DNA of 64,000 bases from Escherichia coli (lineage in GTDB: Bacteria; Pseudomonadota; Gammaproteobacteria; Enterobacterales; Enterobacteriaceae): NCBI RefSeq assembly GCF_003334255.1, contig NZ_QOWU01000016.1, one strand, 5' to 3'. Positions 14,901-21,400 of the stretch are shown here, piece after piece (within the stretch, counting starts at the first letter, position 1; every line of letters starts with the position of its first letter). Both the position numbers and the translations under genes were made by a program. The notes under the pieces are model-generated. The model searched no databases, had not been told where the DNA came from, and worked only from the letters and a program-made list of their open reading frames with translations.

Positions 14901-16223
<1,323 letters not shown>

Positions 16224-16369
16224 TTATGGGGTACCTGCGGCCTTAATATAACACCCAGACAACATCACAGAAATGTACCTGGATCATAATTGAAACAAAA
16301 AGGTTAAAAAGTTTGAGCTGGCTCGCACAAACCAGCACTTTTTAAAGTTTTGTAATCAGTTTGGGGTAG

Positions 16370-18358
16370 CTACTTTTCTTCCAGGTAACTCTCTTCGAAG
16401 ATTTCAATAGGGAGTGGGCGAGCAAAAAGGAAGCCCTGGGCAATACCAACGCCCGCTTTTGCCAGCCAGTCGCGTTGTGCTTCAGTCTCCACGCCTTCGG
16501 CAATCATTTGTAAGTTCAGGCTCTGCGCCAGCATGATAATTGCAGCAATCATGCTGCTATCTCCCGGCAAGCCTTCAACAAACATTTTGTCGATTTTCAG
16601 TACGTCGATTGGCAACGATTTCATATGCTGCAGCTGACGCAGCCCTGCGTAGCCCATGCCGAAATCATCCAGCGCCACCCGAACTCCGGCATTGCGCAGC
16701 GGACGGAGGATTGCCACCGCAGCATGAGGGTCGTCAATACGTCGGCTTTCTGTCACTTCCAGAATCAGTGTTCCCGGCTGAATGCGATAGCGGGTTAACA
16801 GTTCCAGCATATCCGCCACCATATTCGGGTGCATCAGTTGCAGCGCAGAGAGGTTTACCGACAAGGGCAGCATAATGCCGCGCTCTTGCCAGGCTGCAAG
16901 CAATCGACAGGACTCTTCCAGCACCCAGTGACCGACGGTAACCATCAGCCCACAGCACTCAATGCGATCGATTAAGCCATCCGGCAGGTCCCAACTGCCA
17001 TCCGGTTGCTGGATACGCAGTAACACTTCCGCACTGACCAGTTTACCGCTGGTCATCTCGACCTGTGGCTGTAACCAAATAGCAAACTGATGATTTTCCA
17101 GTGCATTAAGGATATCGCTCTCTTCCGTCAACCGCTTCTGGGCGGCTTCCATCTGCTGCGGATCAAAGAACTGAATCTGATTCTTGCCTTTATGGCGAGC
17201 GGTAAATGCCGCAGAAATAGCGCGACTGTAAAGCTGTTCGGCGGTGAGATCGCCGTAGAACATCGCCACGCCAATGCTACAGTGCGGACGGAGTTGAATA
17301 CGTTCAATCGGCAGGCGCTCGCTCATGATAGTGAGCACTTGCTGACCTAAGGTGATTGCGTGCCACGGTTCCTGTACACCGTTGGCAATGACAGCAAAGT
17401 CATAACCGCTAATCTGCGCGAGGATCATACGTGGCGACAGTACCGATTTGAGTTTTTCCACCAGCGTCAGCAGCAGAATTTCTCGTTGCGCCTCTTTCAG
17501 CACGCCCGCAGTATCACGCAGGGTTTCACAGGTGATGATCATCAGCGCGGTGGTTTGTTTACGCGCGACAACCTGCTCCAGCATCTCCATCAGCAAGGCT
17601 TTGTTCGGCAAATCCGACACCGGGAAGCGCATCGCATTTTCGTTCTGTTCTTCATAATGGCGCTGCAGCAATTGCTGGTTGAGGTTGTAACTGCGCACCA
17701 ACATACCGATTTCATCGTCCTGATGCAGACGCGGTAATGCCAGTTGGTGACCAACAAGCTCCTTGGCTGGGATGGCGTTAAGTTCGCGAGCAATATTGCG
17801 TAACGGATGCAAAATCAGGCGGTTAATGCACCAGCTGATGGCGACGGTCAGGATAAGCGACAAAAGTAAGTAAATGGTCACTAACGTTGAGAGGGTGCTC
17901 ATCACGAACTTATACATACGGAAGGAATCCGCCTGTAGTACCAGATAGGCAATTGGCTGCGGGTTTGCCGGACGTTCGAGCGAGTAAACGCCCAGCGAGA
18001 TTTGAACCGGTAGCTCAAACAGGCGAGTAACCATTACCGGCACCGGGCGCTCTGGAATAAAACTTTTACGCAGCGCCTGGAACTGGTTAGGCAGCACTAC
18101 ATCGGCACGGCTGACCACGCCTGCCGGTTTAATGCTGGCAAGAATAGCTTCCGCTTCGGGAATATCGCCTTTCAAAATAGCTGAAGATAAGGGTTCGCGG
18201 ACAGAGCGAGCAATGCTTTCCAGTTGCGTAGCCGTGTTATAGCGATTCTGCTGGACCAGATGGAACAGCAAAACGGTGCAAAAAATAAAAACGAACACCA
18301 GGACAACGGCTGCCACCATTGCCATCTGCTTGATTGTTAACGAGCGACTTACGCGCAA
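16370..18358 (-). CDS. pdeK: c-di-GMP phosphodiesterase with TM/HAMP, degenerate GGDEF-like and EAL domains (about 662 aa)
   Basis: ORF recognised as YhjK/PdeK; no intact GG(D/E)EF motif seen; EAL-type domain with EVL motif; ORF-track start at 18358 is TTG, first in-frame ATG is 11 codons downstream, so the exact start is uncertain. Confidence 0.85.
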
Positions 18359-18439
18359 ATTGTCTCCCCCCGGAAATCCCAGATTGCCGCCCGAGTATAC
18401 CCGATCGCAGCGGCATTAAGAGAGGCGCTATCTGAAAAC

Positions 18440-21400
18440 TTACCAGTCGGCGTAAGGTATCAGCGGCTGCGGCGGTAAATCCATGTCACCCTGCCATCCG
18501 GCGGCGGAATAACGTACGTAGAGCAGGAAATGGCTGGGTGCGTAATCTTTCGCCTGCTGGATATCAATTGCCGTGCCAACAAACCAGTTGGAAGTAACAC
18601 GTCGTTCAAGTAATGCCCGCGCCGTGTAGCCGAAGCCCTGACTGCTGCCGCCATCGTTGGATTGCCGCGCAGCTTCTTCCTGCCAGTCGGTCGGGATCAG
18701 ATTCATCAGCGGATAACGCGGCATGGTTTTGGTGCGTGAATGCGACCACGAGCCAGACGCACCCAGCTCCCACGACCAGTTTTCCGTGCGCTCCCGCCAC
18801 ATCACCGGTATGGCAAACGACAGGTATTCCTGCGGACTGTAGTAACCGCCCTGACCGAGTGAGTAGCCACTCAGATCTTTGTCGTAATGCCAGATCATGT
18901 TGTTCAGGCCGATTGTGACGCGGCGATTGTTCTGGTTAATGACCTTATAGTAATAGCCCGTCATCCAGCGCACGCGCCAGTTATCTTCGACATTTTTACC
19001 GGTTAACTGGTCGCCACTAAGCGATGCCCAGACGCCGTTTGCTTCACCTTTATCGTAGCTCAGACTTAGCCCCACACCGTCGGCACGTACGCCACCCCAT
19101 TTTTTCCCGGTATTGCTCGGGGAGTCTTTTTGCCCACCAAAGGCCAGCAAAGAACTGGAGATGGGCCGACGGTGGGCGTTAACGGTGTAACCCAGCGGCC
19201 CGATATCATCGCTGTAACTGATGCCGCCGACCACATCCACCACGTTGAAGCCCATCGGCGTGGTACCGATATCCCAGCTCCAGACGTCATTTCGCCAGCC
19301 GACCGCCACGCTGGCACCGGAATCCGACTGGCTGCGGTTGCCGCTACAGTCCTGTAATGTACAGGTGCCCCAGTTGTCATCCCATTTGCCATCGGCATTA
19401 GTGGAGAAACTGCCGACGTTCATATTGACGAAATCACTGCGAAAGAACATCCGCCCGTCAGAATACGGCGCATCCACCTGCAACATGGTAGTGTGCGCTT
19501 TCAGATCGGAGTAACCACCGGTGCCGCTCGAACCCCAGTAATCGTGCTCAAGGGTGACGTTAAGATCCTGCTGGCGATAGAGGTCCGCCGCATCGCTGCG
19601 CACGCCACGTTTCAGCCAGTCATCCTTCTCGTCGTTACGGGTCAGTCGGGTAAAGGTGTCGTTATCCTGCGGACGCGTCGTAGTCACACCGGATGCGACC
19701 ATGGCGTCTTTGTAGGTTTCCAGCGCCTGCGTTGGATCGCCCGCCTGCGCTTCAAACTTCGCACCATCACGCAGCACCATCGCGCTTTCCATCGACGGTG
19801 GCTGAGATTTTGCCTGCGGGATCAACTTATTAAACGTCCGCTGCGCTGCTGCGGTATCGCCAAGCTGCGCCTGTGCCAGCGCCACGCGCCGCTGTGTGTT
19901 CAGCGAGGCGTTATCGGTAGCGGGCAGTTTCGCCAGCTGGCTACGTGCCGCCGCTTTGTCACCGGCAGCAATATCCACTTCCGTCAGACCAAGAATGGCG
20001 TCGGCGTTAGCTGGCTCCCGCGTCAGGACATTCTGATATGCAGCGCGGGCGGCGGTGTAATCACGTCGTTGTTGCGCCCAGTCAGCCAGCGTGAGGTCAA
20101 TACGCGTGGAAGGTGGTTGCTGGCGCAGCATCGCTTCCGCTTCTGCCTCTTTGCCGCTTTCTCGCAGGCGGTTAGCGGTTTCCAGCACCTGATCGCTTTG
20201 CAGTCGATTAACCAGCTCCTGAATATTGCTGTTCCACTGCGCACGCGGCAGGCTGTTGATATGCGCCAGCGCCGCTCTGTCCTGGTCATGACCAGAGAGG
20301 TACAGCCCGTAAGCGTAAACCTGCTCCGGGTCGTTCGACTTCTGCTGCGCCAGATTGCGCATTAACGTATCGGCCTGGCTGCGTTGTCCGGCCTGCCAGA
20401 GATCCTGCGAAAGTCGGTAAGTAATCCATACGCTGCCGGGGTCCAGCGCCAGTCGTTGCCGCTGAAGTGCTGCCGCCTGCGCCCATTTGCCCTGGTTTTC
20501 CAGTGCCTCTGCCTGCTGTGCCAGACGGTCGTTTTGCAGGCTGCGTTCGATATCATCAATGCTACGCCGCTGACTGGCAGAGAGCGAGGCGATAAACGCT
20601 TCAGCTTTTTCTGGCGATTGCTGGCGGTAAATATTTGCCAGCCCGCGCACGGCGTTAGTGTTGCCGCTGTCCATACGCAAGGTCTGCTGATAATAACGTT
20701 CGGCGGCGGGATAATCTTTTCGCGCCATCGCCACATCGCCCAGCCCCAGCACTGCATAACTGTCGGTGTTATCGACATTACGCGCCTGCTGGAACAGGCG
20801 TTCTGCCCGGTCAGGATTATTGGCTTTCAGCGCAGCATCGCCCTGCTGGATCGCCAGCCAGTAGCGGTTTACTTTCAGCAGACTGTTCCATTTGTCGTTG
20901 TTGCTGCTGTGCGGGTCCAGTGCGAGGGCTTTTTCCAGATTCGCCACTGCATTGGCGCGATCGCCTTTCTGAGAATACGCCTGGCCCAGCGCCCCCAGAG
21001 CTTCACTGTCTTTCGGGTTCGCCCGCACCGCCTGTTGTAGTTCGGGAATGGCTTTACCCGCCATACCAGAGTCCACCGCCGCTAAACCTTGCGCACGAGC
21101 GCGGAAAGCAGGATCGGCCAGCTGTTTTTGCTGTTCTGCCAGTTGCGATTGCGCAGCCGCCACGCTATCGCCATCACTAAAGATCGAGAGATATTTTTTC
21201 AGCGCCGACACACTGGCATCACTGACGGGCATGTCTTTAATCTGCCCGTACCAGATTTTAGAGGCCCCTTCGCGCCCGGCGTTCGATTTTGCCATCTGTT
21301 CCAGGACGGCAAAACCTTCGTCACGGCGATCGCTACTAAACAGCAATAGCGCCAGATTGTTTTGCAGGCCCGTATTGCCCGGTGCATCCGCATTGATGCG

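Follow-up and report, generated by a model that had tools for sequence, protein, structure and literature searches.

The DNA analysed here, referred to as the window, is a 64,000-nt stretch of an Escherichia coli contig (NZ_QOWU01000016.1 of assembly GCF_003334255.1). Its minus strand carries pdeK, also named yhjK or hmsP, with bcsC upstream and dctA (16187..14901) downstream. The bcsC stop codon at 18440 lies 81 nt upstream of the TTG codon that opens the pdeK frame, which places the gene at the cellulose synthase operon, as is typical of HmsP/PdeK. The gene and the segments of its product are:

16370..18358, minus strand: pdeK (yhjK/hmsP) coding sequence, 662 codons plus stop, TTG start; same ends in the list of open reading frames and in RefSeq
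18323..18355, minus strand: codons 2-12, cytoplasmic N-terminal tail with three basic residues ahead of transmembrane helix 1 (TM1); amino acids invariant
18254..18322, minus strand: TM1, approximately aa 13-35 (Kyte-Doolittle windows >1.6 starting at residues 5-20)
17894..18253, minus strand: GAPES3 periplasmic sensor domain, aa 36-155 (Pfam PF17154, E = 5.9e-46)
17828..17893, minus strand: transmembrane helix 2 (TM2), approximately aa 156-177 (hydropathy windows starting at residues 150-166)
17666..17827, minus strand: HAMP linker, aa 178-231 (Pfam PF00672, E = 3.5e-4)
17177..17620, minus strand: degenerate GGDEF-like domain, aa 247-394 (Pfam PF00990, E = 1.1e-10, model positions 6-161 of 161)
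17396..17410, minus strand: SGYDF, aa 317-321, at the position of the GG(D/E)EF active site (alignment to DgcC, 3icl and DosP)
16415..17116, minus strand: intact EAL domain, aa 415-648, with EVL (aa 444-446) at 17021-17029 (Pfam PF00563, E = 3.5e-59)

With two hydrophobic segments flanking GAPES3, the protein shows the HmsP/PdeK architecture TM-GAPES3-TM-HAMP-GGDEF(degenerate)-EAL. The predicted product would be a 662-aa inner-membrane protein in which a basic cytoplasmic tail is followed by TM1, the GAPES3 domain, TM2, the HAMP linker, a dead GGDEF-like domain and an active EAL domain.

A sequence-only reading of this stretch had named the gene pdeK and described the longest minus-strand frame (18358..16370) as opening with TTG, with the first ATG at codon 12 (18325, MAMVAAVV), and both descriptions hold. 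RefSeq coding sequences with identical ends are annotated as b3529, NP_417986.4 (‘c-di-GMP phosphodiesterase PdeK’) and WP_001266293.1 (hmsP). In addition, the protein scores 781 bits against the NCBIfam HmsP equivalog NF008807 (‘biofilm formation regulator HmsP’; curated cutoff 733), with residues 2-659 aligned to positions 1-663 of the 670-position profile, so that the profile begins at the N-terminal tail. The region is an ordinary, already characterised E. coli pdeK, the orthologue of Yersinia hmsP, and a known pdeK with a TTG start, a dead GGDEF-like domain and an active EAL domain is, with high confidence, the best joint explanation of the data.

Over 2.2 kb, the pdeK region is 100% identical at the DNA level to E. 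coli K-12 MG1655 and likewise to many other E. coli strains. K-12 PdeK (YhjK, b3529, NP_417986.4) has the same coding sequence ends, 662-aa product, domain order and position between bcsC and dctA, and the gene itself shows no differences. The 2.2-kb region was found in 5,425 of 5,426 complete E. coli genomes. In the pig isolate HNSQ2209 (NZ_CP137737.1), pdeK is broken by an IS5-family transposase.

Further upstream in the window, bcsQ (about 27973-28725, minus strand) starts with MAVLGLQG and its codon 6 is intact. For classical K-12 strains, a bcsQ allele with a premature stop has been described. The window DNA probably stems from a cellulose-proficient background, despite the K-12-identical pdeK region.

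A simple scan of both strands of 16100-18800 for sigma-70 promoters and intrinsic terminators found none; in particular, neither a predicted intrinsic terminator nor a consensus sigma-70 promoter lies in the 81-nt spacer between bcsC and pdeK (18359-18439, minus strand). A TATACT at about −41 of pdeK was considered as a promoter candidate and dropped, its sequence not being conserved in other genera.

Start codon and N-terminal tail of PdeK

Three codons at the beginning of the frame have served or could serve as starts, listed here with the SD sequence of the first:

18363..18370, minus strand: Shine-Dalgarno (SD) sequence GGGGGAGA, with a GGAG core at 18364-18367, 5 nt before TTG, pairing with the 16S rRNA 3′ end
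18356..18358, minus strand: TTG initiation codon, TTG in 81 of 81 Enterobacteriaceae sequences
18323..18325, minus strand: ATG at codon 12 (would give 651 aa), no SD sequence (+0.5 kcal/mol), ATG in 81 of 81 sequences
18317..18319, minus strand: ATG at codon 14 (older 649-aa model), no SD sequence (−1.6 kcal/mol), not ATG in nine of 81 sequences

The sequence-only reading regarded the start as ambiguous and proposed to compare the ribosome-binding sites of TTG and the downstream ATG. That comparison gives a clear site for a single start, the TTG, so that the ambiguity does not persist: the SD sequence of TTG forms a duplex of −9.4 kcal/mol with the 16S rRNA 3′ end and the ATGs have none, while protein-level conservation in 80 other species begins exactly at TTG. 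Both the strong SD sequence directly upstream of TTG and the third candidate start, Met14, had gone unmentioned. A duplex as stable as that of TTG is reached at 0.45% of 18,270 sampled window positions and ranks among the best of the long open reading frames in the window, whereas the scores of ATG12 and ATG14 are no better than background. Upstream, the frame extends no further than an in-frame TAA at 18418, 20 codons before TTG, and no ATG, GTG or TTG lies in between. Translation would accordingly initiate at TTG 18358, driven by the strong SD sequence.

Secondary structure was predicted around each candidate. A 9-bp hairpin formed by GGCAAUGGU and GCCGUUGUC (about 18298-18322, minus strand) covers ATG14 and the first TM1 codons, leaving ATG14 with an unpaired probability of 0.02; it is probably incidental. 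A small predicted hairpin overlaps part of the SD sequence of TTG, which has an unpaired probability of 0.29. Given its weakness and the lack of sequence conservation across genera, this second hairpin was discarded as a regulatory element.

For comparative analysis, 80 loci from Enterobacteriaceae, one genome per species, were combined with the window to give 81 sequences; more divergent N-terminal halves were also aligned. The codon homologous to the pdeK start is TTG throughout this set, and GGAGA at −11 to −7 is the sole conserved upstream block. Directly after TTG, variation becomes confined to third codon positions, the first two being invariant, so that the 3-nt periodicity starts right there; Ser6, for example, is encoded by TCG, TCT, TCA or TCC and Leu7 by TTA, TTG, CTT or CTC. 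With third positions varying so freely, conservation of codons 1-11 as an RNA element was rejected. In-frame stops occur as near as five codons upstream of TTG with no start in between, and nine of the 81 sequences have Thr, Ala or Ile in place of Met14.

The same picture extends to relatives at 35-60% identity (HmsP of Serratia and of Edwardsiella and several metagenomic proteins), which keep the 12-residue tail from residue 1. Among these distant relatives the start is TTG in four (Serratia, Edwardsiella and two metagenomic) and GTG in one, but never ATG, and each has a GGAG-type SD sequence and upstream stops nearby.

A start at ATG12 (18325) or ATG14 (18319) would yield a protein of 651 or 649 aa and turn the upstream 11-13 codons into an untranslated leader. 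ATG is the favoured initiator, the stretch preceding ATG12 is rich in A and largely unpaired (0.84 in the −12 to −5 window), and older annotation as well as some gene callers give 649-651 aa, the 649-aa numbering having been used by Richter et al. 2020. However, neither ATG has an SD sequence, and the invariant amino acids and free third positions of codons 2-11 in the 81 sequences are unlike a leader. Met14 is not only missing in those nine sequences but also in Serratia and Edwardsiella, its codon is sequestered in the predicted hairpin, and a protein starting there would begin within TM1, devoid of the three basic residues that set N-in topology. We therefore consider a start at either ATG extremely unlikely; the methionines at codons 12 and 14 appear to be internal ones.

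Dual initiation, in which TTG would give the full-length membrane protein and ATG12 or ATG14 a minor isoform of altered topology or function, is in our view very unlikely as well. TTG is weak, so that some scanning 30S subunits might take a nearby ATG, Met12 is present in all 81 sequences, and the region just upstream of it is unstructured. Against this, there is no SD sequence and no conservation signal particular to a second start, the conservation of Met12 is equally explained by its position in the invariant tail motif, and an isoform without the tail has no obvious function.

Because the SD sequence, the comparative evidence and the tail/TM1 topology agree, we regard the start as settled at TTG, an assignment that we hold with great confidence. 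In the searchable literature, we found no direct mapping of the pdeK N-terminus by N-terminal proteomics or initiation-site ribosome profiling.

As an initiator, TTG is inherently weak. When the 81 sequences are placed on a neighbour-joining tree, its first base requires 0 parsimony steps, compared to 16.7 on average at 4-fold degenerate sites, corresponding to a rough P of ∼1e-5 were start-codon switching neutral. This invariance suggests selection for the weak initiator, and together with the strong SD sequence it makes pdeK a clear-cut case of a conserved start other than ATG.

The 12-residue tail (18323-18358, minus strand) is the most conserved segment of PdeK, with a mean column identity of 99.9% among 74 orthologues versus 83% for the EAL domain and for the GGDEF-like domain, and none of the Pfam models covers it. 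Its three basic residues ahead of TM1 are as expected for an N-in membrane anchor. That the invariant weak TTG and the ultra-conserved tail are both functional features is a tentative idea, which we consider possible but rather doubtful. The TTG might keep the copy number of PdeK low and in step with that of the cellulose synthase complexes, and the conserved weak start may be a sign of dosage control over an enzyme that acts locally. The tail, in turn, could function as a motif for specific docking, insertion or signalling instead of a generic positive-inside signal.

What ambiguity there is about the start belongs to annotation history: among public gene calls, PdeK is given as 662, 651/650, 649 or 647 aa, and the same 11-residue discrepancy occurs in Serratia and Edwardsiella entries. 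Numbering in Richter et al. 2020 (PMC7397504) follows the 649-aa protein from Met14 and is offset by 13 relative to the 662-aa model, so that E431, V432 and E611 correspond to residues 444, 445 and 624. The offset likewise affects the published segments aa 148-649 and delta 26-136. Constructs designed on the 649-aa model would miss the 13 most conserved residues of the protein, and ‘full-size’ constructs from such work may lack a functional motif if the tail is one.

The degenerate GGDEF-like domain and the active EAL domain

As had been noted from the sequence alone, no GG[DE]EF string occurs anywhere in PdeK. The register of the GGDEF-like domain was established by BLASTP against the active E. 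coli cyclase DgcC and by phmmer against solved structures, and both agree. In this alignment, which the sequence-only reading had proposed as a check, no intact motif emerged: SGYDF occupies the signature position, opposite GGDEF of DgcC, GGDKF of 3icl and EGTQF of DosP. The best solved relatives of the domain, 3icl and DosP, are themselves degenerate GGDEF domains of GGDEF-EAL proteins.

Compared to DgcC, GRFGGDEF is replaced by AQISGYDF, with Q315 in place of the Arg before the signature. The DxD motif corresponds to T276-C-E278, with T276 at the metal-binding Asp, ND to A284-G285, with A284 at the guanine-binding Asn, and GD to R-E293, with E293 at the Asp. We take T276, A284, E293 and Y319 to be the equivalents of PleD D327, N335, D344 and E370, respectively. 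The cyclase active site, defined by GG(D/E)EF and the metal and guanine residues of DxDxFKxxNDxxGHxxGD, is accordingly absent from PdeK and likewise from 74 Enterobacteriaceae orthologues, in which the signature reads SGYDF (47), SAYDF (13), SGYDL (7) or otherwise (7). The Serratia orthologue has SNTEF. The I-site, an RxxD five residues before the signature, is also lacking: RGSD of DgcC is replaced by SPRM, of which M311 is invariant in the orthologues. With other residues at the metal-binding, guanine-binding and signature positions and without an RxxD I-site, the GGDEF-like domain is predicted to be unable to make c-di-GMP.

In contrast to its active site, the domain as a whole is well preserved: its mean column identity of 83% equals that of the EAL domain, so that it is under selection. 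In the DgcC alignment, two phosphate-contacting basic positions of the GGDEF fold are apparently kept as R/K, so that residual nucleotide binding is conceivable. Caulobacter PdeA (CC3396), in which GTP binding at the GGDEF site reportedly controls the EAL domain, offers a precedent for a reading in which the domain is an allosteric nucleotide sensor (of GTP, or of c-di-GMP at the I-site) that controls the EAL domain, and not purely a structural dimerisation module. The conservation of the domain and the retained basic positions fit this reading. However, the equivalents of PleD N335 and D327/E370 are A284, T276 and Y319, and the I-site is SPRM. Moreover, the purified cytoplasmic part is highly active, and added GTP was not reported as required (PMC7397504). 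We regard an allosteric sensor as unlikely and favour a dimerisation module.

The EAL domain retains its complete set of catalytic and metal-binding residues: E444-V-L, R448, N502, E534/E537, D564-D565 (DDFG), K588, E621/E624 (EGVE) and Q641. In line with this, c-di-GMP hydrolysis has been published for the K-12 protein, which is identical to that of the window (PMC7397504). Richter et al. 2020 described PdeK as GAPES3-HAMP-GGDEFdeg-EAL and showed that its cytoplasmic part is a highly active phosphodiesterase in vitro, dependent on the EVL motif and the catalytic Glu, with E431A/V432A and E611A (649-aa numbering) abolishing activity (PMC7397504). In the same study, the transmembrane regions were found to contact BcsB and the periplasmic loop to contact DgcC, which led to a role for PdeK as a local c-di-GMP sink opposing DgcC at cellulose synthase, next to BcsA; deletion of pdeK has a weak phenotype in vivo (PMC7397504). 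The isolated GGDEF domain homodimerises strongly and contacts other GGDEF domains in two-hybrid assays (Sarenko et al. 2017, PMC5635695).

These data bear on the earlier suggestion of a non-catalytic, regulatory GGDEF-like domain. Its first half is upheld by the alignments and by published work, while ‘regulatory’ applies in part: because the cytoplasmic part on its own has full phosphodiesterase activity (PMC7397504), the GGDEF-like domain is not inhibitory, and the two-hybrid results point to dimerisation and contact. It is plausible that the domain is regulatory only as a dimerisation or transmission module. Most likely, it would dimerise the cytoplasmic part and relay movements of the HAMP linker to the EAL domain, with the periplasmic GAPES3 domain sensing a signal.

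Both the TTG start and the dead GGDEF domain are already known, and RefSeq annotates the 662-aa TTG product in K-12. With the gene, the domain layout, the dead GGDEF domain and the local-sink role all published, the discovery value of the locus is small and its practical value lies in bookkeeping.

In some orthologues the EAL domain deviates. The orthologue of Enterobacter sp. Bisph1 has lost EAL catalytic residues (AHALLR, LAVSDS, NIGK and AAGVE), and Lys replaces the EAL glutamate in three Kosakonia-type loci (Kosakonia arachidis, K. oryziphila and a metagenome-assembled genome with the same sequence) and in Enterobacter sp. JUb54. Such orthologues may be enzymatically dead PdeK variants.

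Relation to other GGDEF-EAL proteins

Yersinia pestis HmsP (NF008807) belongs to the same family as PdeK and resembles it in architecture, in its degenerate GGDEF signature and in having an active EAL domain; it is listed as ‘SKTEF and EAL’ (PMC3084805). The two proteins are about 60% identical in their N-terminal half. Their outputs differ, as Yersinia HmsP acts on Hms (poly-GlcNAc) biofilm and E. coli PdeK on the pEtN-cellulose synthase. The HmsP proteins of Serratia and Edwardsiella that we examined have the same 12-residue tail and TTG start as PdeK. A BCSC_C gene lies upstream of hmsP also in the Serratia locus and in one metagenomic relative; at the Edwardsiella hmsP locus, no upstream gene was called.

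DosP/PdeO and PdeR of E. coli and Caulobacter PdeA likewise combine an active EAL domain with an inactive GGDEF fold on its N-terminal side. PdeK differs from other GGDEF(degenerate)-EAL phosphodiesterases in its sensor module, which is GAPES3-HAMP compared to PAS/haem, and from Caulobacter PdeA in that the GEDEF site of the latter still binds GTP, whereas the guanine- and metal-binding residues of PdeK are lost.

More distant proteins of similar architecture and length are the GAPES3-type GGDEF-EAL proteins P0227 and P0242 of Balneatrix alpica and the metagenomic P0230, whose N-terminal similarity to PdeK is low (24-26% identity). Unlike PdeK, all three keep a complete DxDRFKxxND motif and a signature that reads GGDEF or GSDEF. 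Because these most distant GAPES3-type relatives retain the cyclase motifs, the comparison suggests that the PdeK/HmsP clade lost the cyclase residues secondarily.
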